Notes: a model not told the origin generated them from the letters alone. Counted from the stretch's first letter, positions 7,964 through 48,286 are shown. The stretch: DNA of 64,000 bases from Nanobdellota archaeon (GCA_030648155.1 JAUSIK010000013.1:65924-129923); one strand, 5' to 3'. Numbers and translations: made by a program.

Positions 7964-9748
7964 TTGGCTTGTATGGGATTGTTATGGAAGAATTTAAAGA
8001 AGTATAAGGGATTGCTTGTTTTAGCTTTAGTTTTGGCTACAATCAATCAGGTTTTTTCTTTGCTTGATCCTCAAATATTTAGATTAATTATAGACAATTA
8101 TGCCAGCAAAATTGGAGAGTTAGAAAGAGAGGAGTTTTTCAAGGGAATAGGGCTCTTACTTTTGGCATCAATAAGTGTGGCATTGATTTCTAGAATTGCC
8201 AAGAATTTTCAGGATTATACTGTGAGTTATATGACTCAAAAAATGGGTACACGAATGTATTCTCAAAGTGTGAATCATACTTTTTCTTTGCCTTATGAGG
8301 TTTTTGAAGATCAAAGATCTGGAGATTTACTGCAAAGACTGCAAAAGGCAAGAACTGACACACAAACATGGATTGCTAGTTTTATTAATGTTATTTATTT
8401 GTCTATAGTCGGCATTTTATTTGTCGTAATCTATGCTTTCAGTGTTCACTGGATGGTTGGGGCTACTTACTTCTTAATTGTTCCAATTTTGGGTGTATTG
8501 ACTTTTGTTTTGAGCAAGAGAATTAAAGAAGCTCAAAAGAAAATTGTTGCTGAAAGTGCTGCATTAGCTGGATCTACAACTGAAACTTTAAGAAATGTTG
8601 AACTTGTTAAAAGTTTGGGATTGGAAAGTCAGGAAATTGGAAGATTAAATGAAGTTAATGAAAAAATACTTAATCTTGAATTAAAGAAAATAGTTATAAT
8701 TAGAAAGATAAGTTTTATTCAAGGAACAATAATAAATTTGATGAGGGTCTGCTTGCTATTATTAATGCTTTGGCTTGTTTACACCAGGGGGATTACTTTA
8801 GGTGAATTCTTTAGTTTGTATATTTATTCATTCTTTATATTTTCACCGCTTGGTGAACTTGGAACTATTGCTGCTCATTATCAGGAAGCTAAAGCGAGCA
8901 ATGAAAAATTACAAGAGGTATTAAAGATGTCGCCACAGGAGAAACCTGTTTCTCCTAAAACTATTGAGAGTTTAAAATCTATAGAATTTAAGAATGTCGA
9001 GTTTACTTATAAAAGCGGAAGTAAACCTTCAGTTAGAAATTTAGGATTAAATTTGAAGGGTGGAGAAACTATAGCATTTATTGGACCTTCTGGAAGTGGA
9101 AAGACTACATTAATTAAACTTTTAGTAGGGTTGTATAGTCCGACAAAAGGGAAAATAAGTATAAATGGGAAAGATTCTAAAGAAATTGATTATGATGATT
9201 TAAGAAGGCGTGTAGGATTGGTTTCACAAGAGACTCAATTATTTGCAGGAACTTTAAGGGAAAATTTGCTTTTCGTAAATCCTAATGCGACGGATGAAGA
9301 GTGCATGCAAGTTTTGAAACTCGCTTCTATTACTGCATTACTTGAAAGAGGAGGAAATGGACTAGATACTAAAATTGGGGAGGGAGGGATTAAAATTTCA
9401 GGCGGGGAAAGACAGAGACTCGCAATTGCCAGGGCATTATTAAGAAATCCTGACTTGATTATTTTTGATGAGGCTACAAGTAGTTTAGATTCTATAACTG
9501 AAAAGGAAATCACAAAAACAATACAGAATATCATTAAGGCAAGGCCTAATTTGATGGTTGTATTAATCGCACATAGATTGTCCACAGTTATTCACGCAGA
9601 TGTAATTTATGTTTTAGAGAGAGGGAAAATTATTGAGAAAGGCACGCATAATGGCCTACTTAAGAAGAAAGGGCTGTATTATGCTTTGTGGAGACAACAA
9701 AGTGCGGTGGATAATGGGAAGGATAGTTTAAATGGGAAGAAAGTATAA
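7964..9748 (+). CDS. ABC transporter, fused permease and ATPase (exporter type)
   Basis: Six TM helices at the N-terminus. Walker A is GPSGSGKTT, the ABC signature is LSGGERQRLAIARAL and Walker B is IIFDEATSSLD. Confidence 0.9.
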   Translation: MACMGLLWKNLKKYKGLLVLALVLATINQVFSLLDPQIFRLIIDNYASKIGELEREEFFKGIGLLLLASISVALISRIAKNFQDYTVSYMTQKMGTRMYSQSVNHTFSLPYEVFEDQRSGDLLQRLQKARTDTQTWIASFINVIYLSIVGILFVVIYAFSVHWMVGATYFLIVPILGVLTFVLSKRIKEAQKKIVAESAALAGSTTETLRNVELVKSLGLESQEIGRLNEVNEKILNLELKKIVIIRKISFIQGTIINLMRVCLLLLMLWLVYTRGITLGEFFSLYIYSFFIFSPLGELGTIAAHYQEAKASNEKLQEVLKMSPQEKPVSPKTIESLKSIEFKNVEFTYKSGSKPSVRNLGLNLKGGETIAFIGPSGSGKTTLIKLLVGLYSPTKGKISINGKDSKEIDYDDLRRRVGLVSQETQLFAGTLRENLLFVNPNATDEECMQVLKLASITALLERGGNGLDTKIGEGGIKISGGERQRLAIARALLRNPDLIIFDEATSSLDSITEKEITKTIQNIIKARPNLMVVLIAHRLSTVIHADVIYVLERGKIIEKGTHNGLLKKKGLYYALWRQQSAVDNGKDSLNGKKV

Positions 9749-31303: not shown

Positions 31304-31702
31304 TTAAGACTTTTGCTTTTTGAAATTTAATGCTAGGGAGTTCATGCAATATCTTTTTCCAGTTGGATTGGGGCCGTCATCAAAAATATGGCCTAAGTGG
31401 CTTCCGCATTTTTTACAAATAACTTCAACTCTTTTCATAAATAAGGAATCATCTTTTTTTAGTTGGACTGAATTAGGAAGTGCATCATAGAAACTAGGCC
31501 AGCCTGTTCCAGATTCAAATTTTGTTTTCGAGTTGAATAGTGGATTTCCACAGGCTGTGCAGGTATAGACTCCAGTTTCTTTGTTATGAAGCAGAGCTCC
31601 TGTGAATGGGGCTTCTGTTCCTTTTTCTCTAAGTATGTGATATTGTTCTGGGGAAAGTTTTTTCTTGAAGTTTGAGATTGATTGAGGTTTTTTGGATTTC
31701 AT
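31304..31702 (-). CDS. msrB: peptide methionine sulfoxide reductase MsrB
   Basis: Zn-binding CxxC pairs CTACG and CKKCG. The active-site region is GTGWPSF, and the HLGHIFDDGP motif is present. Confidence 0.9.
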   Translation of the reverse strand: MKSKKPQSISNFKKKLSPEQYHILREKGTEAPFTGALLHNKETGVYTCTACGNPLFNSKTKFESGTGWPSFYDALPNSVQLKKDDSLFMKRVEVICKKCGSHLGHIFDDGPNPTGKRYCMNSLALNFKKQKS

Positions 31703-31983
31703 TTTATCATTTCTCCAACACTAGGGATATGCAGTAATATAAATTCTCTAATTTCTTTTTTAAATTCAGGATTCAATGATATTCCAGTAAAATTTGACTT
31801 TTTATATATTAATATCCAGTTCAATTTAGAAAGTTGTTTTAGAGATTCATTAAGATTTTGAAATCTTTTGAAATGTTCTGTTCGGTCATATTTTGCCCCC
31901 CAGTTTTCTTTCCTGGCTAACTTAAACATTATTTCGGCTTTCTCTTTTTCTAAAGTAAGATTCATTTTTATGTAATAATTCAT
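31699..31983 (-). CDS. hypothetical protein
   Basis: ORF only. Overlaps msrB by 4 bp. Confidence 0.3.
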   Translation of the reverse strand: MNYYIKMNLTLEKEKAEIMFKLARKENWGAKYDRTEHFKRFQNLNESLKQLSKLNWILIYKKSNFTGISLNPEFKKEIREFILLHIPSVGEMIK

Positions 31984-32063
31984 TTTTATATAAATGTTTC
32001 TATTTTTGATATATCTCTATTATGAATAGTAATATTTATAAAGGGGCATAATTTAATCATATT

Positions 32064-32402
32064 ATGAAAATTAAAGAGAATAAGTCTTTATTTTTGAAAC
32101 AATTTGGAGATACTCCTCAATTGAGAGTTTTAGACTTTTTTATAGATAATCATTTTTTTGATTTTCCTCTAACGGAAATAGCTAGAGAAAGTAATGTAAG
32201 CTATAATTCATTAAAGTTGATATTACCTCAATTTATTAAGAACGGTATTGTTTACAAAACTAGAAGAATTGGAAAGTCCGATTATTATAAATTAAATTTG
32301 GAAAACCTTATTGTAAAAAATTTGATGAAACTTGATTGGATGCTTGTAGAAAGAAGTATGGAAAATATTGGAAATAAAGAGAAAAAAGTTATTCTATCTT
32401 AA
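32064..32402 (+). CDS. winged-helix DNA-binding protein
   Basis: LTEIARESNVSYNSLKLILPQFIKNGIVYKTRRIGKSDYYKL is an HTH followed by a wing. Confidence 0.4.
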   Translation: MKIKENKSLFLKQFGDTPQLRVLDFFIDNHFFDFPLTEIARESNVSYNSLKLILPQFIKNGIVYKTRRIGKSDYYKLNLENLIVKNLMKLDWMLVERSMENIGNKEKKVILS

Positions 32403-32509
32403 TTATTTAGATATAAATTTCTATTGGATCAATTTTTAATAAAGATCATTGAGACATCCTATAGGATTGGCAAGATATGGTTTAAATAGTTCTTTGATTA
32501 TTTTTATTT

Positions 32510-32947
32510 ATGAGATACGACGGTATAGAGATTATAGGTTCTGGGAAATTTTCAGAGAAAACTGTAGATGCACTTGAATGGATTAAGAGTAAGAGCAAGA
32601 AAGATTATGAAAAAGTTAGGAAATATTTGAAGGTTATAAAGCAGTCATCTCGGTCTTTAATGTTATTAAAGACGGCACAGTTTAATGTTAATATTCGTTC
32701 CGCTTACCATGGAGTTGAATGGTATGCTGGGATTATTGTACATGATGTACATCACTACTATTTGCATGCTATAAAAGGGTTTAAATGGGAACCTAAAACA
32801 TTTGCTAAACATGAATATTTGTGTTTTGATGAACAATTGAAATTTTTAAGGAAAATTAAGGCTCCTCAATGGCTGATAGATCACGTTGAAAAGTCTTACA
32901 AAGCTGGACATTGGAGACCTTCAGCTAGAAAAAAGCAAAATTGGTGA
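32510..32947 (+). CDS. hypothetical protein (His-rich)
   Basis: ORF only. Confidence 0.3.
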   Translation: MRYDGIEIIGSGKFSEKTVDALEWIKSKSKKDYEKVRKYLKVIKQSSRSLMLLKTAQFNVNIRSAYHGVEWYAGIIVHDVHHYYLHAIKGFKWEPKTFAKHEYLCFDEQLKFLRKIKAPQWLIDHVEKSYKAGHWRPSARKKQNW

Positions 32948-32956
32948 AGGTTCAAG

Positions 32957-33096
32957 AAAAGCCTCAAGAGGGATTTGAAATACAAACTTTTTAGAAAAAA
33001 GTTTCTATGAGTTCAAAAACTTAGAAGGCTATTGATTCTCAATAGTTGTCTAGCGCATGCACAATTCCTTAAGAATTGATTGGAATTTTCAATTCC
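32957..33096 (-). mobile_element. 140-bp unit at tRNA-Thr: a 23-bp copy of the tRNA-Thr 3' end (32957-32979) plus a 117-bp hairpin-rich element
   Basis: aaaagcctcaagagggatttgaa occurs at 32957-32979 and again at 33097-33119, where it spans the tRNA 3' end plus 4 nt of trailer. The intervening sequence shares about 90 bp with 43853-43945. Confidence 0.6.
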
Positions 33097-33100
33097 AAAA

Positions 33101-33190
33101 AGCCTCAAGAGGGATTTGAACCCCCGACCCTTAGTTCGTTTGGATTTCTTCTCATACAAAACTAATGCTCTACCACTGAGCTATTGAGGC
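33101..33190 (-). tRNA. tRNA-Thr (anticodon TGT) with an 18-nt intron after position 37
   Basis: Acceptor stem is GCCTCAA/TTGAGGC, D arm GCTC-AGTGGTA-GAGC, and anticodon stem TTAGT/ACTAA enclosing a 25-nt loop. That loop is the 7-nt loop TTTGTA.A plus the intron TGAGAAGAAATCCAAACG. Confidence 0.8.
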
Positions 33191-33308: not shown

Positions 33309-34112
33309 ATGGTAGTTATAAGCAGAGTCAGCAGGGGGAGCAAAATGGATCAGATATATCTGCCTAGAAATAGAGAGGGCTTGAATGCAGGAGATTATGT
33401 CGTAGTTGAAGCCTTAGAAGAGGAAATTGGCAGAGAGAAGAAAAATGGAAAAGTAAATGAGAGGCTTTTCTTTTATGGTGTTAAGGACTTAGAGCCAATA
33501 AAATTAGAGATAATTAAAAAAGTTATGAAAATTTTGATGGATAAAAGGGCGTTTATATATAATAATATTATTATTACAGGGTCTTTTTTGAATAAGGGAT
33601 TTAATTTTAAAGATATAGATTTAATTATTGTGGGTGATAAAATTAATGGGAAATATTTGAAAGGAATTCTAGAAGAAAAAACAGGCATTGAATTTCATAT
33701 TAATGGAATAAAGAATAAGGATTTGATAGCTGGGCTGGAAAGTGATCCATTATATGAAATGATGCTAAATAAGTGCATTTCAAAGAAGAGATTTGTTTAT
33801 AGGACAAAGAGAAAAATAGACTATAAAATTTTGGATTTGCATTTATTAAAAAGCAAGGCCTTAATAGATAATTTTGATATATTAAATGGGGGAGAAAAAT
33901 ATTATTTGGTGAGAAATGCTATGGCAATATATCTTTTTATCAAAGGGAAAAAAATTAGCAAAGAGAGTGTAGACACAGAAGTGAAAAAAATATTTGGAGT
34001 AAATATTGATAAAATTAAAGACAACTTGCTAGATAGGGATGATTTTATAAGAAAGTATAATTCTTTTTATGATAAGGTATTTGATTTAATTATAAGGGGC
34101 GGTAGGAAATAG
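33309..34112 (+). CDS. AbrB-like N-terminal domain fused to a pol-beta-type nucleotidyltransferase
   Basis: QIYLPRNREGLNAGDYVVVE is a swapped-hairpin-like motif. IIITGSFLNKGFNFKDIDLIIVGD matches the GS..D.D nucleotidyltransferase signature. It is a paralog of 44389..45177. Confidence 0.55.
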   Translation: MVVISRVSRGSKMDQIYLPRNREGLNAGDYVVVEALEEEIGREKKNGKVNERLFFYGVKDLEPIKLEIIKKVMKILMDKRAFIYNNIIITGSFLNKGFNFKDIDLIIVGDKINGKYLKGILEEKTGIEFHINGIKNKDLIAGLESDPLYEMMLNKCISKKRFVYRTKRKIDYKILDLHLLKSKALIDNFDILNGGEKYYLVRNAMAIYLFIKGKKISKESVDTEVKKIFGVNIDKIKDNLLDRDDFIRKYNSFYDKVFDLIIRGGRK

Positions 34113-35972: not shown

Positions 35973-37828
35973 TTTTTGAAAAAAAAGGGCAGATGACTAT
36001 ATTTGTTATTATGGCTATAGTATTGGCTGCAGGAATTATAACCTATTTTGTCGTTCGTGGAAACTTGGGAAATAATAATGTTCCTAGCGAACTAGAGCCT
36101 GTTTTTAATTATTATAAAGAATGCATAAGGCAGGAAACTAGAAATGGGGCAAGTTTGGCTGGAAGCCAGGGGGGATATATTGATGTCCCAGCTTACAAAC
36201 CTGGAACTGAATTTGCTCCTTTTTCATCTGAATTAAACTTTTTGGGTTTTCCAGTTCCTTATTGGTATTATGTATCTGGGAATGGACTAATAAAAGAGCA
36301 AATGCCGAGTAAAGCAGATATTTCTATTGAAATTGGAGAGTATGTTGGAGAGGAATTAGAAAGATGCGACTTTACTCCTTTTATTGCACAGGGATATAGC
36401 ATTGAGGTTGACGAGGCTGATGTTAAAGTGGATATTGAAAATACAAAATTGAGGGCAAGAGTGATTTCTGAAATGACCGTCTCAAAAGGAGAGGCATATG
36501 CTAGAATTAGCGAGCATAATATTGAAATAAATAGTAAACTAGGAAAATTTTATGATATTGCAAGAAAAATTTATGAAAAACAAAGAGCCGATGCAGTTTT
36601 TGAAACTTATGCAATAGATGTTTTAAGATTATACACTCCTGTAGATGGGGTTGAAATAAGCTGTTCTGGAAAAGTTTGGAAAACAAATGATGTGATACAA
36701 GAATTAAAATCAGGACTTGAAGCGAATATTGGTGCTTTGAAATTTAAGGGCGACTATTATAATCTTATTAACAAAAAAGGAGAATATTATGTAATTGATG
36801 CAGGTGAAGATATAGATGAGAATATTAACTTGATATATTCTAGAGAAATGCCTTCTAAAGTAGAAATAGTTGGAGAGGGAGTCGATGATGATTTAATGAT
36901 AGCTTCACCAGTAGGAATACAAGAGGGATTAGGCATCCTTGGATTTTGTTATGCTCCTTATCATTTTGTTTATGATGCCAGTTTTCCAATTATGGTGCAG
37001 ATATATAATAATGAAGAAATATTCCAGTTTCCTGTAGTGGTTATTATTGATAATAATGTTGCAAGAGAGGGAGTATTTTCAGAATTGGAGCAGGATAGTG
37101 AGGAGTTTGATTTGTGCGAGTTTATGAACCAGGATATTGAAGTAAATATTTATGATGTGAATTTAGAAAGAGCAAATGCTAATATTTCTTACCAATGCTT
37201 TAATCAGCGATGCAGACTCGGAGAAAGTAAAGATGGAAACTTTGCAGGAAAGGCTCCATCATGTTTAAATGGAGAGATTTTACTAAGGGCAGATGGATTT
37301 AGTGATAAGAGTGAAGAGTTTTCAACAAATAAAGAAAAAAATATTGATATTATACTTGAAAGGGAGTATAATGTTAAACTTGACTTAAATGTTGGAGGGA
37401 AAAAACTTGATGGAACTGCAATAATTTCCTTTACTGATTCAAATGGAGAAAGCAAAAGTACGTTATTGCCTGATTCTCCAGAGATTAAATTGAGCGAGGG
37501 CGAATACGAGATAAAAATTTATGTTTATGGAAATTCAAGCATAACTATTCCTTCAAGCAAACGAACACAATGCCAAGATGTTCCTCGATCTGGAATAATG
37601 GGCTTTTTTGGAGGGACCAAAGAACAATGCTTCGATATATCAATACCTGAAACTAAAATAGAATATGCATTAAGGGGAGGGGGCACGTCTAAGGAATATA
37701 TCCTTGCTGATTATTTAGAAACTGGAAATATTGAGATAAATGTTGATGAACTTCCTTTACCTAAATCATTAGAAGAATTACAATATAATTACGCTTCCTT
37801 TGAAGGGATGAGGGTGACAATTATATGA
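35969..37828 (+). CDS. large secreted protein with a class-III (archaeal type IV pilin-like) signal peptide
   Basis: The N-terminus MIFEKKGQ-MTIFVIMAIVLAAGIITYFVV shows the KGQ cleavage motif followed by a hydrophobic helix. It is translationally coupled to the downstream giant gene (ATGA). Confidence 0.5.
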   Translation: MIFEKKGQMTIFVIMAIVLAAGIITYFVVRGNLGNNNVPSELEPVFNYYKECIRQETRNGASLAGSQGGYIDVPAYKPGTEFAPFSSELNFLGFPVPYWYYVSGNGLIKEQMPSKADISIEIGEYVGEELERCDFTPFIAQGYSIEVDEADVKVDIENTKLRARVISEMTVSKGEAYARISEHNIEINSKLGKFYDIARKIYEKQRADAVFETYAIDVLRLYTPVDGVEISCSGKVWKTNDVIQELKSGLEANIGALKFKGDYYNLINKKGEYYVIDAGEDIDENINLIYSREMPSKVEIVGEGVDDDLMIASPVGIQEGLGILGFCYAPYHFVYDASFPIMVQIYNNEEIFQFPVVVIIDNNVAREGVFSELEQDSEEFDLCEFMNQDIEVNIYDVNLERANANISYQCFNQRCRLGESKDGNFAGKAPSCLNGEILLRADGFSDKSEEFSTNKEKNIDIILEREYNVKLDLNVGGKKLDGTAIISFTDSNGESKSTLLPDSPEIKLSEGEYEIKIYVYGNSSITIPSSKRTQCQDVPRSGIMGFFGGTKEQCFDISIPETKIEYALRGGGTSKEYILADYLETGNIEINVDELPLPKSLEELQYNYASFEGMRVTII

Positions 37829-40800
37829 GAAAAGAAATATTACTAGGGATTGTAATTTTGTTTGTTTTAGTGGTTGGAGTAGAAGCTCAAGTAGGGGGGA
37901 GTTTTTCACAATCAGTCACATATCAACATAGGGCAAGCTATCAGGCAATTTATGGGCCTGAAGATAGACTAAATACATACTGGCCTATACTGGGGGATAA
38001 AGAAACTTGCCAGGCAAGACAGGACTTTATACTACAAATTTCTCCTGCTGGATGCCAGCCTGCTGTAGTGAGGTCTGATCTATTAGCTGAACAAAATGTT
38101 CCTGTATTTTGCCAGATAGATGCATTACAAATAAACCCTTTAATTGATGTTGATAAAATTAGAAGCCTTAGATTTACTGGGAAATATCCACAAGAGATTT
38201 TAGGCGCAGGATTTCATCCTGCTAGAGCTGCATTAAGAACTAGGGACAAATTACTAGGAAGTCCATTAATAAATAATATAGGGTATGTCGTGGTAGTTTT
38301 GAAGAAAAACCCTGTTGAAAAAAATGTTCCTGACTTTGTTAATGTAACTTTATCTGCTCAAATTGATTACGAGGCAGGAAACGCTTTTGGTATTGGGAAG
38401 GCAGAATTTATTTTAGAACCAGTTAGTGATTATGAATGGGAAACGCAAAAATTCAAACAGAGTTTTTGGAATGGAAGATATTTTGTTAGACTAGAACAAG
38501 TTGATCCTAATTTTGTTGTTGTTTCTTTATTTAGCGGTGAACGAAAAATATCTACAACTAGAGTTGGAAGAGGCGAAACTAGCAGTTCTATTTGGGTTCC
38601 TGGAGTTTATTGCAGGGCTGGAGTTAAAGTCACTTATGATGGATTGGTTGCTGCCGAAAATAAGGCAACGATTTCAATAAGTGATGATAAAGGAACCGAT
38701 ATTTTAGATGTTTATGATGGAAGCAGATTTTTAAATGATAAGTGTAGTGTAGATAAAATTGAAATATATGATGAAAAAAGTAGTTCTACTGTTAAGGCAG
38801 GAAATGTAAGCATTAGATGCAGTGACGGACAGAGATTAGAGCTTAAATTAGGAGATGTTTTGAAAGAAGATAAATGGCATTTATCTGAAAAATATGATCC
38901 TACTAAAAGAATAGATGTATTTTTAGATTTAGGAAAGAAAATAAAAAGCGGAATTTATTTCAAAGATGCTAAAGTTTATTTGGAATATATTGAAAATGAT
39001 GTTAATTTTGATGGGCCTTTATTTGTACTTGAAATAGGAGAGGTAAGAAATAATGTGGTTTATATGGATGCGATAAAGTTTGGGGATGCAATTAAAGATG
39101 TTAATTTGAATGTTATTAATGAGGTTAAAAATTCTTTCGAATTGTTAGATGGGGCTAAGATTGTAAATGAGGAGTTGAAATTGGATGCCTATAATATTAA
39201 CAGCAATATTGATGAGTTAAATTTAGGCGATGAAAATGAGAATAAGCTTAGAGAGGCTATTTCTGCTTTTAGAAATGTAAGCGATCAATATCCTGCCGAG
39301 AGAGACAGCAATTCTAAAGATGGAGAAAGCTGGGGAGAAAGGGCACTTAAGAAGGCGATTGATTTAGCTTCATTGGCTGGAAAGGAAAAGATAAGGGCAG
39401 ATTTAATTAAAGAATTTGTTGATAGGTATCCTGATTCAAATTTTGCTGATAGTTATAGATATGAATATAATCAGATAGTCAGCACTGATTTTTCAAGAGC
39501 AGGTGGGGTAATAAATATAGACCAGCGGTTTTACAATGTTAGATTGGTTGATTTGGAAATACCAAGAAAACAATCTAGTGCTGATTTTGCTTTGACTGGC
39601 GTGGAATCTGGAAATGTTAAAGTAAATTTAAATGAACTAAAAAATATTATAGATAGAGGGGTAGGGTCGATTGATAGCATAAGATTAGATAAAATACATG
39701 ATGAAGAAAATGTTAAGGCTAGTATAAATTGCAGAGTTGAAAAGAGCGGGGGAGGTTATGGTTTGAAGTCAGAATCTTATAATTTGAAATTAAATGATGA
39801 GGCTACTAAGGTTTGCGATAAGGCATTCATTAAATTGAGAGATACACATATTGAACAGATTGCAAAAGTAAGATTAATACCTGAAGCACAAGGGACTAGA
39901 ACAGAGACAAATTTAACCGTAAATATTGGAATTGAAAAGAGAGCTATAAAATTATCACCTGATAAAACTAGCGAGATGATTGAAAATCTTAATGAAAGTA
40001 TTAAAAAGTGGGAGAATATAAATGAAAAATTAGGAAAGGTTGTAAGTGGATTGAAGGGTGCTTGTTTCGCAACTGCAGGCGTATTGACTGTGAAGAATTT
40101 CATAAGCGGAATAGGTGGAGAGGCACTCGCAAGGCAAAAAGTGATGGTAGGATGGACAAAAGAGTGCAGTGATTTGGTTAATGCTAATCCGCCAAAATAT
40201 CCAACATTAAATGCTTGTTATTTAGCAAAGAGTGATGAGATTAATAAAGATGTAAGCTCTGCAAATGAAGCAATAAATCAGATTAATACTAGAATTGAAG
40301 GGATTGAAAGAAATTATGTTGAAAGCAGTTCTATAGGCGGAACGGATATCAATAGGGGGAAGGCGGCGGTTGCTTACTGCAACGATTTAAAGACGAGATA
40401 TGGAACAAGAGATGTTAAAATTAAAGAAGGGGCTAATGAAAGAACTCTAAAATTTAGTGAAGTATTAGGAGATTGTGAACAAGGATATAATAATCAGGGG
40501 CTTTATGGATACAATGAGTTGAGAGAGATAGAATATAATTTGATAATGAAAGATAGGGCTTCTTCAGTTAATGTTAAAGATAGTTCAAATAGATTATTAC
40601 AAGGAAGTTATGACCAGATTTATGAAAATAGACATCGTTATGAGGAAGTTGAGAAGGCTAAAGCGACAAAGACTCTAGGATTACCTTCTGTTCCGATTGC
40701 ACCTACTAGTAGTATTAGAAAGAATGTTGTTGGAGAGGTTGTGAGTGTGGGAGGAGTTTCTTCTGATGTTAAAATTGATAAATTAGATAAGGAAAAAAAT

Positions 40801-43791
40801 ACTCATCTGGCAAGCATGAGCACTTATAATACAGAGGGATTTACTGTTAATGGTATTAAGAGAAAAGGTTTCAAGGGAGGAGATATTTACTTATTGGGAC
40901 TGAACAAAGATACAGAGGGATATTCTGTTCAGGAAGTTTATAGGAAGACTGGAGATAATAAATATGAAATATTAGATAGTAGTGAGAGGGGAGATTTCTT
41001 AGATATATATGGAATTGGCAGAATAACTCCAGCAGATAGTGTAAGTTATGCAAATTCATACGAAAACCCTGAAGTAAGATATTATGAAACTGAACCATAC
41101 AAGGGAATGCCTGCGATTGTACCTTTTGATGTTAGAGATGGGTGGTATGCTGCGACAAGACAGACTTTACCTGCATTTGGAGGAATAGGAGCATTTGATT
41201 CTAGCGGAAGAGTTACTAGTTTTTACTTATGCAATGTTGGACCTAATCATAAAGAGCAATTCTTTGAGGGATATGGGGATGATATTTGCCAATTAATTAA
41301 TTTGAATACAGGACAGCCTTATGGATTCTTCCCAGGGTTGAGTGAGACTGAAGCAAAAAGAAGAGTTGGACAGGCAGTTGGTGCAATTGAAGATGCTGCA
41401 AATCAATATGGCAGGAAACTTGCAAGAGTTGCTGGAAAGGATTTTGCGGTTGGAAGGCCTGCTGCAAACATTCCTTCAACTCAATGCCAGAACTTTATGT
41501 CTCCTGAAGAATGCCATTTAATGTTTAATGTTTGTGATCCTGTTATTTGTCCTTCATCTAGATGTGATTTTGGAGGGCAATATCCTGTAGCAGACGTTGT
41601 ACAGACTGGAATAATTGGATCAACATTATTATGTCTTCCTAATATTAGAGAAAAAATTATTATTCCTGTTTGCTTGACAGGAATACATGCTGGAATTGAT
41701 GGGTTTGTAAGTATTCTAAAAAATCATAGAGATTGCTTGCAAGAAAGTTTAGAAACTGGGAGAACAATTGGAATTTGCGACCAGATTTATTCAATATATT
41801 TATGTGAATTTTTCTGGCGACAGATTTCTCCTGTTGCCAAAGTAATTTTACCAAAGATAGTTGAACTTGCTTATGGGCAGGGAACACGAGGTGGTGGAGA
41901 ATATCTTACTGTAAGTGCAGCTTGGCAGAATACACAAGACTCTGTAAATTATTTCACTCAAAGCTATGCTGCGAATTCTATTAAAGCATTCCAGGCAAGA
42001 AGTATAGAAGAGGCAGGGGCTCCATTCTGTAAGGCATTTGTTTCTGCAAAGGCACCTACTTCGTTTGAGAGTTTAATTGAACCTGACAGTCCTCCACAAT
42101 TCCATGCATGGTTTAGTGCTACTAGATTTACAGATGCAACTGTTCCTGCTACTTCACAGTATAAAGTATTTTATCATATATTTTCTGGAAAGGATCAGGG
42201 TGTGCATTATAGTGTATATATGAAGAATCCCCCTACATCCAGCTACTATAGTTTGCCTGCCATTGTACATGTTGCTTCTGGATTTGTTGGAAGAGGGCAG
42301 TATGCAACCGAAAGTAAAGACTTTACTGCTCCAGAAGGATATAAAGAATTATGTGTAAGAGTAAATGATAAGGAAGAATGTGGATTTAAAGAAGTATCAA
42401 CAAGCTTTGCAATTAATTCTCTAAGAGATAGTTATGTAGCTGACCAGGCAAAAGAATCAGAAATAAAAACTGAAGGGGAATGCATAAGTGGAAGCACAAG
42501 TTTAAAGGCAACTGTATTAAGTCCTAATATTGGGGCAAATGCAGAAGAGGCAGGTTTGCCACAAATTTATAATAGGGGAATTGTTAGAATTTGTTCAAGC
42601 AAAAACCCTGGAAGCGCGACTGATCCTAGTAGATTTGCTGATAAGGGATTTTGCGGTGATCCAAAATTAAGATGCTGGCTTGATAAAAATAGTGTGGCTA
42701 ATGCAATAACCGATAACAATGCAGGAGTTAGAGACGCGACATTATCGGAAATTGAGAAAACTCAAAGAGAAGATTTAGCTAATAAGGGAATAATTGTTGG
42801 AGATGATGTTGCAGTAGAAGAAATTAAGCAAATAAGAGATTCTATAAATATGTTAAGGACAAAGGCAGAAGTAAGCGACCAGGAAGTAACAGAAACAACA
42901 ATTCGACTAGATTCTTTATTTGATAGAGTGGTGCTTAATCATCATAAGGCGCAAATACTTTATTTAATTGGAGACAGCAAAGCAGTGCAGGTTGAAAAAA
43001 TTATTGCAAAAATAAGAAACCAGGAGAGCAGGAAATCAGAAGTTGTGAAGGGAACAGAGGTTCCGACTCCAACTGAAACTCCAAAGGCAACTGCTACTGT
43101 GACACCAAAGTCAACTCTATCTCCAGAGGCGACTCCGCAAGTTACAAATAATCCTGTTAAATTAACTCTTGGGCAGGATTATAACAGCAAGATTAAAATT
43201 TATTTGTATAAAGATGGAAAGATTACAGATATTTATTTTTTGAATTCAGAGATATTTATTGAAGATTTTGCACTTTGGATTGATAGAAGAATTGGAAAAG
43301 TGAATAAAAATAAAATAGAGGTATTTTCTTATAATATTGATGATACTAATACTGCATTAGGGGGAGAGTATGATGAATTTTTTGACGGGTATTTTGTTGA
43401 GGGAAGAAATATAATAAAAATAGAAGGTACAAAAGAGGTTATTGATGCAGAAAGGAGTGAGGGAGATTATCAATACATATTAAGCAATGAGTATAACCCT
43501 GAAAATACGATTAGCATCATAGAAAAAAGTTCTACTGCGGATAGAATAATATTGATTATTGAGAAAGGAAAAATTTATACTCCTCAATTAAAGATATTGA
43601 TCGGAAATGTTCGACCAATTGAGGAAGGATTATTTGAAATTCAACTAATTAGTGAAGCTAATAGTGTGAACGGATTACAAGCTTATTTAGATAGCAAAGG
43701 ATTATTTATTCCTGAAAGTAAAGTCCTCATTTATTACAATTTAAATAATGCGATTATCGAGGGAAAAGAAATAATTATATCTTTAACTTGA
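37825..43791 (+). CDS. giant (1988 aa) secreted surface protein or adhesin, with a Cys-rich central module and a C-terminal T/P-rich linker
   Basis: Sec-type signal MRKEILLGIVILFVLVVGVEA. A Cys cluster lies around residues 1290-1420, and the linker reads PTPTETPKATATVTPKSTLSPEATPQ. No enzymatic motif is recognisable. Confidence 0.6.
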   Translation: MRKEILLGIVILFVLVVGVEAQVGGSFSQSVTYQHRASYQAIYGPEDRLNTYWPILGDKETCQARQDFILQISPAGCQPAVVRSDLLAEQNVPVFCQIDALQINPLIDVDKIRSLRFTGKYPQEILGAGFHPARAALRTRDKLLGSPLINNIGYVVVVLKKNPVEKNVPDFVNVTLSAQIDYEAGNAFGIGKAEFILEPVSDYEWETQKFKQSFWNGRYFVRLEQVDPNFVVVSLFSGERKISTTRVGRGETSSSIWVPGVYCRAGVKVTYDGLVAAENKATISISDDKGTDILDVYDGSRFLNDKCSVDKIEIYDEKSSSTVKAGNVSIRCSDGQRLELKLGDVLKEDKWHLSEKYDPTKRIDVFLDLGKKIKSGIYFKDAKVYLEYIENDVNFDGPLFVLEIGEVRNNVVYMDAIKFGDAIKDVNLNVINEVKNSFELLDGAKIVNEELKLDAYNINSNIDELNLGDENENKLREAISAFRNVSDQYPAERDSNSKDGESWGERALKKAIDLASLAGKEKIRADLIKEFVDRYPDSNFADSYRYEYNQIVSTDFSRAGGVINIDQRFYNVRLVDLEIPRKQSSADFALTGVESGNVKVNLNELKNIIDRGVGSIDSIRLDKIHDEENVKASINCRVEKSGGGYGLKSESYNLKLNDEATKVCDKAFIKLRDTHIEQIAKVRLIPEAQGTRTETNLTVNIGIEKRAIKLSPDKTSEMIENLNESIKKWENINEKLGKVVSGLKGACFATAGVLTVKNFISGIGGEALARQKVMVGWTKECSDLVNANPPKYPTLNACYLAKSDEINKDVSSANEAINQINTRIEGIERNYVESSSIGGTDINRGKAAVAYCNDLKTRYGTRDVKIKEGANERTLKFSEVLGDCEQGYNNQGLYGYNELREIEYNLIMKDRASSVNVKDSSNRLLQGSYDQIYENRHRYEEVEKAKATKTLGLPSVPIAPTSSIRKNVVGEVVSVGGVSSDVKIDKLDKEKNTHLASMSTYNTEGFTVNGIKRKGFKGGDIYLLGLNKDTEGYSVQEVYRKTGDNKYEILDSSERGDFLDIYGIGRITPADSVSYANSYENPEVRYYETEPYKGMPAIVPFDVRDGWYAATRQTLPAFGGIGAFDSSGRVTSFYLCNVGPNHKEQFFEGYGDDICQLINLNTGQPYGFFPGLSETEAKRRVGQAVGAIEDAANQYGRKLARVAGKDFAVGRPAANIPSTQCQNFMSPEECHLMFNVCDPVICPSSRCDFGGQYPVADVVQTGIIGSTLLCLPNIREKIIIPVCLTGIHAGIDGFVSILKNHRDCLQESLETGRTIGICDQIYSIYLCEFFWRQISPVAKVILPKIVELAYGQGTRGGGEYLTVSAAWQNTQDSVNYFTQSYAANSIKAFQARSIEEAGAPFCKAFVSAKAPTSFESLIEPDSPPQFHAWFSATRFTDATVPATSQYKVFYHIFSGKDQGVHYSVYMKNPPTSSYYSLPAIVHVASGFVGRGQYATESKDFTAPEGYKELCVRVNDKEECGFKEVSTSFAINSLRDSYVADQAKESEIKTEGECISGSTSLKATVLSPNIGANAEEAGLPQIYNRGIVRICSSKNPGSATDPSRFADKGFCGDPKLRCWLDKNSVANAITDNNAGVRDATLSEIEKTQREDLANKGIIVGDDVAVEEIKQIRDSINMLRTKAEVSDQEVTETTIRLDSLFDRVVLNHHKAQILYLIGDSKAVQVEKIIAKIRNQESRKSEVVKGTEVPTPTETPKATATVTPKSTLSPEATPQVTNNPVKLTLGQDYNSKIKIYLYKDGKITDIYFLNSEIFIEDFALWIDRRIGKVNKNKIEVFSYNIDDTNTALGGEYDEFFDGYFVEGRNIIKIEGTKEVIDAERSEGDYQYILSNEYNPENTISIIEKSSTADRIILIIEKGKIYTPQLKILIGNVRPIEEGLFEIQLISEANSVNGLQAYLDSKGLFIPESKVLIYYNLNNAIIEGKEIIISLT

Positions 43792-43829: not shown

Positions 43830-43970
43830 TGAAATGCGGGAAGAAGGATCCTGAAATACAAACTTTTTAGAAAAAAGTTTCTATGAGTTCAAAAACTTAG
43901 AAGGCTATTGATTCTCAATAGTTGTCTAGCGTATGCACATTCCTTCAGAATTGACATGATCTTTGATCAT
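43830..43970 (-). mobile_element. 140-bp unit at tRNA-Leu: a 20-bp copy of the tRNA-Leu 3' end (43830-43849) plus a 120-bp element homologous to 32980-33096
   Basis: tgaaatgcgggaagaaggat occurs at 43830-43849 and again at 43970-43989, where it spans the tRNA 3' end plus 5 nt of trailer. Positions 43853-43945 are about 95% identical to 32975-33068. Confidence 0.6.
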
Positions 43971-43974
43971 GAAA

Positions 43975-44058
43975 TGCGGGAAGAAGGATTCGAACCTTCG
44001 AAGGCACTAAGCCACTTGGTCCTAAGCCAAGTCCGTTTGACCGCTCCGGCATCCCCGC
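43975..44058 (-). tRNA. tRNA-Leu (anticodon TAG), long variable arm
   Basis: 84 nt. Acceptor stem is GCGGGGA/TTCCCGC, anticodon stem CTTGG/CCAAG with loop CTTAGGA, a 15-nt variable arm, and T arm GAAGG-TTCGAAT-CCTTC. Confidence 0.8.
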
Positions 44059-44368
44059 ATAAAATTAGGGAGATAAATAGAGTTTTAAAGATTTGGGTTA
44101 GAGATTTTAAAAATTCAAAGTACTGATATTATTCTTAAAAAGGATTTGTGGAAAAAAGAAATGATAGTCCATATGATGGCAAGAAGGTTGATTCAAGCTA
44201 TTTGATCGATAATAAAAGTAGAATTCTGGCATAATAGTGAAAAGTATAAATTATTGAATAGAAATAATAAAAAATATTATTCGAAACAAGTTAAATTCTG
44301 CAAAAATGAGCAGTTAAGTGCTCTTTGATAAATGTTCTTGACTTTTAGAGATAGGAATGTTTATAAAT

Positions 44369-44390
44369 ATGTTTATACATGTATAAACAT
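44369..44390. promoter_or_regulatory. perfect palindrome atgtttatac-at-gtataaacat overlapping the probable start codon (44389) and a tttataaata TATA-like box, a putative operator
   Basis: The 10-bp arms are exact reverse complements. The arrangement is the same as at the paralog, 33289-33308. Confidence 0.45.
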
Positions 44391-45177
44391 GAGACATGAG
44401 ATAATTAAACAGGCATTTAAATTAGGGAATTCTGCTGGAGTTCTTCTACCTAATGAATGGAGAAACAAGAAAGTATTGATTAAACTTATTGAAAAATCTA
44501 TTACAGAAGAGATATTTGAGATTTTAGAGGAGAATAATTTGTTGAAAAATACAATTGGGATTTTTTTAGCTGGGAGCTATGCTAGGGGAGAGGAAACGGA
44601 AGATAGTGATATTGATGTTTTAGTTATAACTGATAATTTCAATAAGCAAATAAAAAATGGAAAATATGAGATAGTTTTTATTTCTAAAGATAGATTAGAC
44701 AACTCTATTATGAAAAGTATTTATTTAGCTTCTTTGATTAGTGAATCTAAGGCAATTTTAAACGGGTATTTTTTAGAACTGTATAAAAATAAGGTTAAGG
44801 GTATTTTTATAAAAAAACAATTGGATGAAATAAAATCTATGACTGGAATAAATGAAAAATCCATTGAAATAGATAAAGAAATGGGGGAGAAAGTTCCTGA
44901 TGAGACTATATATTCTGTAGTTTTGAGACTAAGAGAAATATATTTAATTGAATCCTTAAAAAATAATAAAGATTTTTCTAATAAAGAATTTTTAGGATTG
45001 ATAAGAAGCATTGCTAGTGAAGAATCATACAATGCTTATTTAAGGATTAAGAATAATTTGAAACCTAAACAGACTATTGCGGTTGAAGAAGCTATGGCTT
45101 TAATAGATGAACTAAAGAAAAGAATTAGGAGGCTGAAAAATGGCAAAAAGAAGCAAAAGATTGAAGAAAGCGATTGA
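44389..45177 (+). CDS. AbrB-like domain fused to a nucleotidyltransferase, paralog of 33309..34112. The track ORF starts at 44332, but the start is probably the Met at 44389.
   Basis: KLGNSAGVLLPNEW is a swapped-hairpin motif. IGIFLAGSYARGEETEDSDIDVLVI matches the GS...D.D nucleotidyltransferase signature. Confidence 0.55.
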   Translation: MRHEIIKQAFKLGNSAGVLLPNEWRNKKVLIKLIEKSITEEIFEILEENNLLKNTIGIFLAGSYARGEETEDSDIDVLVITDNFNKQIKNGKYEIVFISKDRLDNSIMKSIYLASLISESKAILNGYFLELYKNKVKGIFIKKQLDEIKSMTGINEKSIEIDKEMGEKVPDETIYSVVLRLREIYLIESLKNNKDFSNKEFLGLIRSIASEESYNAYLRIKNNLKPKQTIAVEEAMALIDELKKRIRRLKNGKKKQKIEESD

Positions 45178-45406
45178 GAGTTATAAAGATGAAATAGAAA
45201 AACATTTTAATAAGTTAGATAAAGATATTGAAGAAGGAGGTAATATATTGGCTAGATATTATATTAAGGAGCTAGATAAAAGTCTTATTGATGCTTTAGA
45301 AAAAAAACTTGGTTTACTAGGGGAGGATGAGGAAACTAGTGAGTTATTGAAAAAATATAAGGCACGCTTGATGGAATATAAGAAAAAAGTTGGTGAATTT
45401 GGATAA
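45140..45406 (+). CDS. hypothetical helical protein (K/E-rich)
   Basis: ORF only. Overlaps the end of the nucleotidyltransferase gene. Confidence 0.3.
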   Translation: MAKRSKRLKKAIESYKDEIEKHFNKLDKDIEEGGNILARYYIKELDKSLIDALEKKLGLLGEDEETSELLKKYKARLMEYKKKVGEFG

Positions 45407-45607
45407 ATGCCTTCAGGAGATAATTAGCATTAGGTTAAGAATCTCACGAGCCAAAAACGAGGTTTGTAGTCGATGAGCTTTTTTCATCAAAAAAGTTGTA
45501 GTTAAAAAAGTGTTAAAGTTAAACTCTGCAAAAATAGGAAGTTAAGTGCTCCCCGAATAGACTGAATCAATCACAATGGTTAAAAATGAGGGTAGGGTAG
45601 TAGAATT

Positions 45608-46315
45608 ATGTTTGGAAAAAATAAATACGTAAACTTCGTTTCAGATAAAGATTTTTTGAAGTGTGTAGAGCATGTTTGTAAAGGATATGCTGAAGCTAGA
45701 GATAATTTATCCATAGAGGATTTAAAGAGTAATGGTCTAGATCCGTTTAAGACCTTATTTGACTTAATCAATAAAAGAATAAGTTTTGATACTTGGTTAA
45801 AAAATGAAGAAATGAGACAAGCTGATAAAACTCTGAATAATAGAATTGGAGAGTTTCATCAAAAATTACTTGGAAGTGTTAAGAATTGGGTAGATTTGGG
45901 AATTGGTGATGATTCTAAGGTAGACTTAATGAAAAAAGATAAATCTATATTTATAGAGTTAAAAAATAAATTTAATACAGTAAATTCAGATTCCTTAGAT
46001 AAAGTTAGGGATAAGTTGGAAAGAGCAGTAGCACAGAATAAAAAAGCCAAAGCATACTGGGCTTTCATTATATCAAAAGACAATTCATCAGGAGATAGAA
46101 TTTGGAATAAAAAAGGTAGAAAAACAAACGAAAGAATAAGAGTAATTTATGGTTCTAAAGTTTATGAGTTAATAACTGGAGATAAAGATGCTTTAAAGAA
46201 AACTTGGTTGGCTCTCCCAAGAGCAATAAATGATTATTTCAATGGGAAAGCGGTAATGATTCCTGAAGAGGATATGAAAAAGCTCGTAGGTTTGTTTGGA
46301 TCGGCTCTTCAATAA
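45608..46315 (+). CDS. putative type II restriction endonuclease, the convergent partner of the C5-methyltransferase
   Basis: The call rests on position only. Its 3' end overlaps the methyltransferase 3' end by 77 bp, and no nuclease motif was assigned with confidence. Confidence 0.3.
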   Translation: MFGKNKYVNFVSDKDFLKCVEHVCKGYAEARDNLSIEDLKSNGLDPFKTLFDLINKRISFDTWLKNEEMRQADKTLNNRIGEFHQKLLGSVKNWVDLGIGDDSKVDLMKKDKSIFIELKNKFNTVNSDSLDKVRDKLERAVAQNKKAKAYWAFIISKDNSSGDRIWNKKGRKTNERIRVIYGSKVYELITGDKDALKKTWLALPRAINDYFNGKAVMIPEEDMKKLVGLFGSALQ

Positions 46316-47306
46316 TTTTCTCGTTTGTATTTGATAAAGCTTTAATTATTTGTTTTCCAACTTCTTCTGCTAATTTTACTGGAACAGCGTTGCCTATTTG
46401 TTTATATTGAGAAGATACACTTCCAACAAATTCCCAGTTATCTGGAAAAGTCTGTATTCTTGCATATTCTCTAATTGTGAATGGCCTTGTTTCTTCTGGG
46501 TGACATCTCTCAGTTTGTTTTTGAGAAGGAGAGGTAGTTAACGTTAAACAAGGTTCATCCCAAGAGATACGTCTCGCCATTCCTCTTTTTCCCCCGCCAC
46601 TAAATAAGCTCTTACCCATAAACTCTTTTTGAATGCCTTTTGGTAAATTTACCCAACTTCCACCAGGAGGAACTAAATCCAATACTTTCTTTCTCTTTTC
46701 AGAATATTTAGTTCCTAGGGAAGAAGGAACTTCCTTAAGAGCATCTTTTAAAGTTGTTGTATTTTTGTGAGGGGTAGGATATTCAAAATTTATCTTATCT
46801 TTTGTTCCTATAATAATAATTCTTTTTCTTTTTTGCGGAACAGAATAATTAACTGCGTCTAGTATTTTGTATTTAACTTTATAACCTAAAGAGGTAAGAA
46901 CTTCAACCATTGTTTTCAAAGTTCTACCGCCGTCATGATTAGCTAATCCTGAAACATTTTCAGCCCAGAATATTTTAGGTTGTATTTCTTTTACGGCTCT
47001 TGCAAACTCAAAAAATAGAGTTCCTCTTATATCTTCAAAACCAAGTCTTTTACCGGCATGACTAAATGCCTGACAGGGAAAGCCCCCAGTTAAAACATCT
47101 GCTTCAATTCCTTTAAAGTCAACATCTTTTATGTCTTTATGTGTAATATTCCAGTTAGGCCTATTTTTTCTTAAAGTAGATACACAATCTTTATCAATTT
47201 CATTAAGAAAAACGTTTTTTAATCCAGCTTTTTCTAAACCCAGCGCTAATCCCCCAGCACCAGCAAATAGTTCTACAATAGTAAAATCGCCCTCTTTTTT
47301 TATCAT
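46239..47306 (-). CDS. DNA (cytosine-5)-methyltransferase
   Basis: Motif I is FAGAGGLALGL, motif IV GFPCQAFSHAG, motif VI ENV, and a QIGNAV motif is present. Confidence 0.85.
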   Translation of the reverse strand: MIKKEGDFTIVELFAGAGGLALGLEKAGLKNVFLNEIDKDCVSTLRKNRPNWNITHKDIKDVDFKGIEADVLTGGFPCQAFSHAGKRLGFEDIRGTLFFEFARAVKEIQPKIFWAENVSGLANHDGGRTLKTMVEVLTSLGYKVKYKILDAVNYSVPQKRKRIIIIGTKDKINFEYPTPHKNTTTLKDALKEVPSSLGTKYSEKRKKVLDLVPPGGSWVNLPKGIQKEFMGKSLFSGGGKRGMARRISWDEPCLTLTTSPSQKQTERCHPEETRPFTIREYARIQTFPDNWEFVGSVSSQYKQIGNAVPVKLAEEVGKQIIKALSNTNEKIIEEPIQTNLRAFSYPLQESLPLSH

Positions 47307-47407
47307 ACTTTAATCATGTATTCATAGTTTAAATATTTTTGGTCCAGAGGGTGTAACTTTGGAGAGGTTCAAGCTAGTATAGTTATTTTAAAAACATGTT
47401 CAATTTT

Positions 47408-48286
47408 CTAAAACCACTTCTTTAATGATTGGTTTTGGTATTTAGAGAGATTAGTCTCAAACTGCCAGAAGTTTATTTGTCCATTTGGATTTTTTGTATA
47501 TATTCCTTTTTGGGTATCAAAGGTTACTTCGAAGTTACTGCCTGAGAATTTTTCTTTCATATATCTTAACACCTCTATTCTCTCTTTTTGTTTATTTGAA
47601 AGTGTAGTATTCTGATTATCCAATCTTGTTTGATTTGTACTTAAGTTACATGTTGGGCAATCCAGACTATAAAATGCAGCAACACCGCTAAAAAAGTCAG
47701 CTATTTGACATAAAGGAAATTTCTTAGAATCTACTTGTTCTATCTCTGATACGGCAAAATCTTTTTTTATCTCAAAAATGTGACTTCCATCTTCTTTCTT
47801 CTTGATAAATATTTTTGATGAAATATTATCCAAAATCTTCTTTAATTCTTCCCAATTAATTACTCCCTGCTCATCTGGAAATATAACCCATTCTGCTTCC
47901 GAAGACCACCTTTTTGTAAATACATTTTTGAACAAGTGGAAATACATTTTTCCCAAGATAGTGTTATTGTCTTCTGGAATTTGTTCCTTTCTTTTATAGG
48001 AGTTCCAAATAACAACATCGATTCTTAGAGTTTTATCTTTTAGAAACTGAAAAACCAAGTCAATAATTTTTTTGGCGGCTAATCTTTCTCTTGCGCTTCC
48101 TAGTTTAGACCATTTAAATTCCTTAAGCCCAGATTCTGTTAAGAGTTTTGCCATTTTATTTTCGATTAAGCTAACAGCTTTCAGTTCCATAGATAGCATA
48201 CATATTGAGCTATATTCTCCTCCGTGATAATATGATTCATCAGAGTAAGCTACATGAGTATGATTTTTTTTATTCCTTTCTTCCAT
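47408..48286 (-). CDS. DUF3800-like protein
   Basis: VAYSDESYYHGGEYSS parallels the YIDESG start of DUF3800, and LCQIADFFSGVAAF parallels the QIADLIA motif. Confidence 0.4.
   Translation of the reverse strand: MEERNKKNHTHVAYSDESYYHGGEYSSICMLSMELKAVSLIENKMAKLLTESGLKEFKWSKLGSARERLAAKKIIDLVFQFLKDKTLRIDVVIWNSYKRKEQIPEDNNTILGKMYFHLFKNVFTKRWSSEAEWVIFPDEQGVINWEELKKILDNISSKIFIKKKEDGSHIFEIKKDFAVSEIEQVDSKKFPLCQIADFFSGVAAFYSLDCPTCNLSTNQTRLDNQNTTLSNKQKERIEVLRYMKEKFSGSNFEVTFDTQKGIYTKNPNGQINFWQFETNLSKYQNQSLKKWF

Follow-up and report, generated by a model that had tools for sequence, protein, structure and literature searches.

The analysed window, a stretch of 64,000 nucleotides from a Nanobdellota archaeon (GCA_030648155.1, JAUSIK010000013.1:65924-129923), has a G+C content of 29-36% and encodes TFIIB, Nre, SRP54, an ATP-dependent ligase and RadA-like proteins, and its tRNA genes carry BRE/TATA-like boxes upstream. 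One of these genes, a tRNA-Thr(TGT) on the minus strand, owes its length of 90 nt to an intron of 18 nt behind position 37, in keeping with the archaeal proteins encoded in the window (TFIIB, Nre, SRP54 and the ligase). Extension of the source contig by 2.4 kb brought in no tRNA.

The 3' end of this tRNA-Thr gene is present twice. The exact 23-mer AAAAGCCTCAAGAGGGATTTGAA, given in the plus-strand sense, is found at 32957-32979 and 33098-33120, and these are the only two matches in the 64 kb when up to three mismatches are allowed, against a shuffle expectation of 0.00. In the sense of the tRNA it reads TTCAAATCCCTCTTGAGGCT followed by TTT, which corresponds to T54 to the discriminator plus three trailer nucleotides. 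The distal copy sits 10 nt past the stop codon of an ORF at 32510-32947 and is read as a target-site duplication. The earlier note had recognised this exact repeat correctly, but its dimensions required correction: the copies lie 141 nt apart from start to start rather than 140 bp, the insert between them measures 118 bp (32980-33097) instead of 117 bp, and the repeat consists, according to ARAGORN and Rfam, of 20 nt of tRNA and 3 nt of trailer rather than of 19 and 4. The insert is gene-less, as had been stated, since no ORF of at least 60 aa was detected and reading by eye gave no longer frame. All three perfect hairpins that had been named are also there, accompanied by a fourth one (hp1 to hp4; Table 1).

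Table 1. Coordinates of the two element copies in the window, their hairpins, the flanking repeats and the target tRNA genes
Feature	Position	Strand	Remarks
tRNA-Thr 3' end, distal copy	32957..32979	-	23/23 match to 33098-33120; then unique flank
Long-type element, copy 1	32980..33097	-	118 bp, no ORF; 97% over ~104 bp to 43852-43954
hp1, copy 1	32984-33004	+ coordinates	perfect hairpin
hp2, copy 1	33029-33045	+ coordinates	perfect hairpin
hp3, copy 1	33063-33077	+ coordinates	AATTC-CTTAA-GAATT; fourth hairpin, beyond the three first named
hp4, copy 1	33080-33098	+ coordinates	variable perfect palindrome
tRNA-Thr repeat, proximal copy	33098..33120	-	functional tRNA-Thr 3' end + 3 trailer nt; inside tRNA call
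tRNA-Thr(TGT), intact, target gene	33101..33190	-	ARAGORN; Rfam RF00005 63.3 bits, model positions 1-71
tRNA-Leu 3' end, distal copy	43831..43855	-	19 nt exact (43831-43849); 25 nt allowing 1 inserted base + 1 substitution in T-loop part
Long-type element, copy 2	43850..43970	-	core 43852-43954; blastn 97% over 104 nt; nhmmer E = 4.7e-56
hp4, copy 2	43955-43971	+ coordinates	CATGATC-TTT-GATCATG
tRNA-Leu repeat, proximal copy	43971..43994	-	functional tRNA-Leu 3' end + trailer
tRNA-Leu(TAG), intact, second target gene	43974..44059	-	ARAGORN; Rfam 56.5 bits at 43975-44058

When the unit was compared with the window by blastn, a second copy of its core was recovered directly 3' of a tRNA-Leu(TAG) gene, where the tRNA-Leu tail GAAATGCGGGAAGAAGGAT is likewise present twice, at 43831-43849 and 43971-43989. 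The tails of the two tRNAs are alike at 19/25 positions, and each repeat pair matches its own tRNA. That one core resides at two tRNA genes, each time between repeats of that very tRNA, indicates that the repeat is derived from the target and is not an att site borne by the element. An independent Logan assembly of the same genome (SRR13727527) contains the same element junction, and its contig breaks off within the element, ~30 nt into the sequence common to both copies, as is expected of a de Bruijn assembler at a repeat.

Syntenic contigs from eight other assemblies (loci with L numbers) were collected through homologues of the 1988-aa protein encoded at 37825-43791 (62-70% identity). The gene order SelR, tRNA-Thr, tRNA-Val, 619-aa protein, large protein, tRNA-Leu and TFIIB is kept in these relatives, and the nearest match of the tRNA-Thr in a named genome belongs to a Candidatus Woesearchaeota assembly. 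The units found there have a long form of ~118-127 bp or a short form of ~72-75 bp, neither of which contains an ORF and both of which comprise three or four perfect hairpins. In L030-L032, the tRNA-Leu is followed by a long-type unit, which is 82.7% identical to the Leu copy of the window over 271 bp of element and tRNA. At the same gene in L031, three more tRNA-Leu tails at +130, +248 and +342 nt form an array with three different small units. In L033, a tRNA-Leu with another acceptor sequence has its own tail duplicated at +79 around a 74-bp unit of the short type, and in L038, the closest relative, a short-type unit is flanked by the tail of its own tRNA-Thr. The short type is seen at the tRNA-Leu genes of L031 and L033 and at the tRNA-Thr gene of L038, with three different local repeats; each copy is flanked by sequence of its own tRNA, although the acceptor sequences differ. 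Finally, a Hainich groundwater contig (L024) carries a tRNA with the tail of the window tRNA-Thr, called Leu by ARAGORN, whose 20-nt tail duplication encloses a 92-nt insert without significant similarity to the window element in either orientation.

Empty sites were encountered at the same genes, namely at tRNA-Thr in L027, L030-32, L036-37 and L039-40 and at tRNA-Leu in L034-35, L036-37 and L039, while L027 retains just decayed remnants downstream of tRNA-Leu. In this census, which rests on 6-7 copies from about five genomes, all six sequence-related copies adjoin a tRNA in one orientation, and the sequence-unrelated insert of L024 is a seventh with the same kind of flanks. A scan with the 19-mer of the tRNA-Thr tail gave one exact match in each of 25 loci, and blastn then disclosed the second copy in L024. 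No solo copies were detected by nhmmer in ~0.5 Mb of sequence. The core 21-mer GCTATTGATTCTCAATAGTTG was absent from viral contigs as well as from genome (GTDB) and metagenome contigs, viral contigs also lacked a further 23-mer and a short-type 30-mer, and blastn in 'distant' mode against phages and plasmids returned no match to the element. A degenerate hairpin pattern gave nine viral matches, all of which were discarded as chance hits without the element.

The repeat was thus borne out as part of a multi-copy system: the blastn search for additional copies that had been suggested in the earlier note succeeded both in the window (at tRNA-Leu) and in related genomes, and a simple local tandem duplication does not account for the repeat. 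The other reading offered in that note, a miniature element that leaves an exceptionally long duplication of its target, is supported by the 97% copy at tRNA-Leu and by the copies in relatives, each with the local tRNA 3' end.

All units share one layout. In the sense of the tRNA, the tail is followed by 2-4 nt, mostly T, then by hp4, hp3, hp2, the terminal hairpin hp1, 2-4 nt ending in TTC and the second tail; hp2 is confined to the long type, and the two types have hp4, hp3 and a GCTRGA block in common. The element hp4 is a perfect palindrome of 6-8 bp with a loop of 2-3 nt. The duplication comprises ~18-23 bp; it starts at T-loop position 54-58 and reaches 1-4 nt past the discriminator, and two distal tail copies have an additional base in the T-loop part. 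This varying right boundary (+1 to +4 nt) and the extra bases make the duplication length less crisp than that of classical transposases. Terminal inverted repeats are absent from all seven inserts, for which 56-97% of the shuffled sequences reached the observed score of an end-to-end inverted alignment.

The hairpins are maintained by changes on both sides of the stems, with three such pairs in the long type and five in the short type as predicted by RNAalifold; hp2, for instance, reads CTATTGA/TCAATAG in the window and CTGTTG/CAACAG in L031. Nearly all stem pairs are of the Watson-Crick type, with almost no G-U pairs, and the folding energies of the sense and antisense strands are close to each other (-31.5 vs -31.6 and -32.4 vs -34.1 kcal/mol), so that a strand preference in folding, which had been considered, was dismissed. 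With such stems and equal folding of the strands, the structures may be relevant in RNA, in single-stranded DNA or as palindromes of the duplex. With Rfam 15, only the tRNAs passed and no family reached its gathering score on the element, the sole CRISPR-repeat match having 15.6 bits against a gathering score of 42. A ribozyme, a C/D or H/ACA sRNA and an omega or guide RNA were dropped as candidates, for which neither Rfam support nor boxes on reading were found.

The divergence among the copies is polar. The end at the distal repeat is conserved, with ~80 nt identical between the two window copies and the last 32 nt identical between the cores of L033 and L038, and the tRNA-proximal part gathers the differences, hp4 being wholly different in every copy. 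The Leu copy of the window combines the hp4 of the short unit of L031 with the core of its long unit, so that hp4 behaves as a separate module. The order of the units differs between L027 and L031, which points to recombination among repeats as a further force in shaping the arrays. The L031 array also holds a tRNA-like tail that differs from the local tRNA-Leu, a hint that units may carry a foreign tail. This 3' end, TGCGGGTGGAGGGATTTACCCC, lies on the plus strand within 8940-9000, and an acceptor/T-arm minihelix (GCGGGT...ACCCGCA) is a possible fold for it when the neighbouring bases are included.

The copies show that the repeat is copied from the target, that insertion leaves the tRNA intact, that the site is reusable and that the orientation is fixed. 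The interpretation that we favour, and hold to be moderately probable from sequence comparison, is that the insert represents one copy of a family of non-autonomous, trans-mobilised miniature elements of Nanoarchaeota (Woesearchaeota-like, DPANN), which would enter staggered breaks at the tRNA tail; we infer the mobility of the family from its distribution. An enzyme supplied in trans would break the two strands of the tRNA gene ~20 bp apart, one of them in the T-loop near position 53/54 and the other 1-4 nt past the discriminator; joining of the element between the breaks and subsequent gap filling would duplicate the tRNA tail. Breaks that span T54 to just beyond the discriminator would leave the tRNA intact, in that the tRNA-proximal tail copy would keep the gene complete and the old copy would be pushed downstream, and repeated insertion at the intact copy would build arrays. 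The run of T after the discriminator does not exceed three in any copy save the window tRNA-Thr (TTTT), and with such short runs the element is probably co-transcribed as a 3' trailer of the tRNA.

As to the enzyme, casposases and target-primed copying are the known mechanisms that come closest, and within the favoured interpretation a Cas1/casposase-like integrase, for which the tRNA would serve as 'leader' and its tail as 'repeat', and polar target-primed copying are regarded as roughly equally likely. The target-primed route fits the common TTC at the distal junction and the contrast between a conserved distal and a variable proximal end, and it would also explain the absent inverted repeats, the variable duplication length, the fixed polarity and perhaps the origin of hp4 by fold-back synthesis. 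Simple cut-and-fill does not predict that hp4 is unrelated between near-identical copies. This point speaks against the favoured interpretation, as do the ragged boundary of the duplication, the foreign tail in L031, the differing unit order, the small number of copies and the absence of the core from the public collections scanned. The mature tRNA is not the source of the copied tail, since the duplication includes genomic trailer bases and lacks CCA. Pfam scans of ~48 of the window's ~72 ORFs detected no integrase, transposase, Cas1, PolB or reverse transcriptase, precomputed Pfam tables of the related loci list no integrase, transposase, Cas1 or reverse transcriptase next to the tRNAs, and no autonomous partner with the same ends as the element was found. 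A bolder version, to which we assign a low probability, is an unrecognised integration system in which the tRNA gene acts as 'leader plus first repeat', short structured units are inserted, the ~20-bp tail is duplicated and CRISPR-like arrays arise, either through an enzyme of the Cas1/casposase type working without inverted repeats or through target-primed copying. The former would resemble the proposed intermediate between casposon integration and CRISPR arrays, and the latter would amount to a SINE-like element in archaea; in either case, the system would be more novel than a non-autonomous site-specific element.

Another explanation, which had been put forward in the earlier note as an attL/attR-like signature, is that a virus or plasmid with a tyrosine integrase entered the T-loop and 3' end with its own copy of the tail and was then mostly deleted, or that a cargo-less CIME-like element was moved in trans. 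An intact tRNA followed by a partial 3' copy in direct repeat, the arrangement expected of an att-type insertion, is indeed present. The 3' halves of tRNA genes are classic archaeal and bacterial att sites with partial tRNA copies as the usual footprint (PMC9897764), the repeat begins in the T-loop, a known integrase sublocation, and tandem accretion at one tRNA is typical; the foreign tRNA-like tail in the L031 array and the variable repeat boundaries would likewise suit an att carried by the element. However, an element-borne att would yield one repeat sequence or a chimeric tRNA, whereas the same 97% core stands at tRNA-Thr (32957/33098) and tRNA-Leu (43831/43971) with locally matching repeats, as does the short type. 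Neither an integrase in or near any of the seven inserts nor kb-scale cargo was seen, and all inserts have 72-127 bp with the same boundaries in independent copies, which independent deletions would not give. This origin is disfavoured by the local match of the repeat pairs, the absence of a nearby integrase and the 118-bp insert, and we rate it as unlikely.

The units might also not be primarily mobile but constitute a selected structured RNA, either a 3' trailer or an antisense transcript, in which the tail copy would function, for example, as a decoy, as a module for processing or stability, or as a guide against the tRNA or its gene. The hairpins are kept by both-sided changes between genomes whose flanking protein is only ~65% identical, the orientation relative to the tRNA is fixed, most copies lack a strong T-run between tRNA and element so that read-through is likely, and the plus strand of the unit begins with 20 nt complementary to the tRNA tail, after which comes a scaffold of hairpins. 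Such a role is nevertheless difficult to reconcile with the empty sites at the same tRNAs in related genomes and with the near-identical copies at unrelated tRNAs of one genome, which indicate recent spread. The perfect Watson-Crick stems and the equal folding of the strands mark no RNA strand, a conserved promoter is absent, reading revealed neither C/D nor H/ACA boxes, and Rfam gave no family. As the principal explanation, a selected RNA seems to us quite improbable; mobility and expression of the element are not mutually exclusive. Although short direct repeats ~140 bp apart can come from slippage and the window is a MAG contig, a local accident (slippage or tandem duplication with filler DNA, or an assembly artefact) is extremely unlikely and effectively refuted by the recurrence of the 118-bp filler at 97% identity, 11 kb away, at another tRNA with its own duplication, by the same junction in the independent Logan assembly and by homologous units in five assemblies.

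The favoured miniature-element reading can be set against known systems, among which casposons, including in-vitro mini-casposons, are close in their choice of target. Casposons target archaeal tRNA 3' ends including tRNA-Leu, with a TpsiC-loop segment as upstream recognition element, and casposases duplicate the adjacent 14-15 bp and can use a site repeatedly, leading to tandem arrays separated by a common duplication (PMC5137440, PMC4779613). The tRNA 3'-end target, a long duplication overlapping the tRNA end and tandem arrays are thus common to casposons and the units described here. In contrast, only ~5 bp of the 14-15-bp casposon duplication lie in the tRNA, whereas the duplication of ~18-23 bp seen here runs from T54 to the discriminator and begins inside the T-loop, although the target region is the same. 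Casposons further possess inverted repeats of 31-225 bp, a size of several kb, Cas1 and PolB, none of which belong to the present units of 72-127 bp, and they occur in both orientations (PMC4779613), while the units occur in one.

Viruses, plasmids, ICEs and CIMEs with tyrosine integrases share with the present loci the intact tRNA with a downstream partial copy and the accretion of units, and tRNA-integrating elements with 44-bp repeats flanking 9-23 kb have been described (PMC9897764). In those elements, the att is carried along and the integrase lies inside, but here the repeat follows the target tRNA and the insert is ~0.1 kb without an integrase. Like MITEs, REPs and PATEs, the units are of small size, contain no ORF, are rich in hairpins, occur in several copies in intergenic DNA (here between convergent genes) and are presumably moved in trans; shortness, lack of coding sequence and presence at more than one locus are what they share with classical MITEs, the derivatives of DDE transposase elements. 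Whereas MITEs are bounded by terminal inverted repeats and make a short duplication of fixed length (2-10 bp), the units lack inverted repeats and show ~18-23 bp with a variable 3' boundary; PATEs and REPs derived from IS200/IS605 have subterminal hairpins, no duplication and a motif of 4-5 nt, whereas here the hairpins are accompanied by a ~20-bp duplication at every copy. To our knowledge, no MITE, PATE or REP has been described as strictly specific for tRNA tails with a duplication of ~20 bp.

There is also a formal likeness to CRISPR arrays, since a fixed upstream sequence (the tRNA body) is followed by ~20-bp direct repeats split by short inserts, and in the proposed model new units would enter at the tRNA-proximal repeat, which would be duplicated on insertion (L031 has four repeats). 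CRISPR arrays, however, combine identical repeats with unique spacers of ~26-72 bp and are accompanied by cas genes, whereas here structured units of 72-127 bp recur, the repeat lies in a functional tRNA and no cas gene was seen. With SINE/LINE retrotransposition, the units share the lack of inverted repeats, a long variable duplication, polarity, one conserved and one variable end and TTC microhomology at the junction. These signs are indirect, and neither a reverse transcriptase nor a poly(A) tail or an internal promoter turned up for the units. We know of no established case of target-primed retrotransposition of the SINE/LINE type in archaea. The full-text literature that was searched covers casposons, integrase-borne tRNA fragments and MITE surveys and yielded no miniature element that is specific for tRNA tails, free of inverted repeats and associated with a ~20-bp duplication. 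The element is consequently filed as a non-autonomous, site-specific mobile element for which no matching family description was found.

Several neighbouring features were noted in their own right. ORFs with AbrB-like and nucleotidyltransferase features lie upstream of both tRNAs (33309-34112 and 44332-45177), of which only the latter matches a Pfam nucleotidyltransferase family, the motif in the former having been read by eye. A link of these ORFs to the element was rejected, as the two proteins are not detectably similar and a further NTase/HEPN pair is encoded elsewhere in the window, and the adjacency is taken as coincidence. The second ORF is part of a 4.7-kb variable island (44332-48286), which lies 5' of tRNA-Leu in the interval up to TFIIB and also codes for a restriction endonuclease of the Eco47II type (45608-46315), a C-5 cytosine methylase (46239-47306) and a DUF3800 protein; it is missing in most relatives, and L033 has a different one there. 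Between SelR and the distal tRNA-Thr repeat, three small ORFs of 94, 112 and 145 aa occupy 31699-32947, the 112-aa product of which looks like a winged-helix protein on reading. They occur in no relative, where SelR or a MazG-like gene abuts tRNA-Thr, and their interpretation as a larger integrated element was abandoned since no further tRNA-Thr fragment flanks them.

In L028 (GCA_964547875.1, CAZJPE010000003.1, 16759-17632), and also in L029, the host tRNA-Leu(TAG) is split into its first 27 nt (~17632-17606) and its last 51 nt (16809-16759), and 6 nt of the anticodon stem are missing. The cassette between the pieces contains an ORF of 230 aa (17555-16863) with faint LAGLIDADG and Hom_end Pfam matches and a complete, divergent tRNA-Leu(TAG) at 16900-16815, and it looks like a homing-endonuclease-type element, which disrupts the resident tRNA gene and supplies a replacement copy. 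In L017, a Hainich H51 contig, three tandem-like units of ~50 nt (GGAGTCTTT..TTCGAAAAAGCC) follow tRNA-Thr at 880-1034, and each ends with the last 4-5 nt of the tRNA and a T-rich trailer; the syntenic L024 has one after the distal repeat, and this intergenic region differs sharply between strains with a near-identical flanking gene and tRNA. Downstream of tRNA-Thr in L039 (300-611), the long hairpins CACATTCCTG...CAGGAATGTG and CAGAGATTTCC...GGGAATCTCTG occur with no tRNA-tail duplication, which may be another kind of structured repeat in the lineage. The introns of tRNA-Thr(TGT) measure 18 nt in the window (33101-33190), 16 nt in L038 (2509-2600), 51 nt in L039 (612-734) and 19 nt in L024 (480-572), and the gene has no intron in L027, L030 and L004; such differences among close relatives suggest that the intron content of tRNA-Thr turns over quickly.

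If the favoured interpretation is true, very small archaeal genomes of the DPANN type carry a class of miniature mobile DNA for which tRNA genes are a safe place to land, the gene being repaired on insertion. A duplication of ~20 bp that is defined by the tRNA and lacks inverted repeats fits no usual transposase or integrase signature, for which reason the responsible enzyme, be it Cas1-like or target-primed, may be mechanistically interesting. For genome annotation, it matters that partial copies of tRNA genes arise through these units and that assemblies are interrupted at such loci, as happened in the Logan contig. The arrays record successive insertions and could serve as strain markers by which strains of uncultured Nanoarchaeota are told apart. 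For the evolution of tRNA genes, the family would provide a new case for why these genes attract mobile elements and for how archaeal tRNA genes become interrupted or fragmented.
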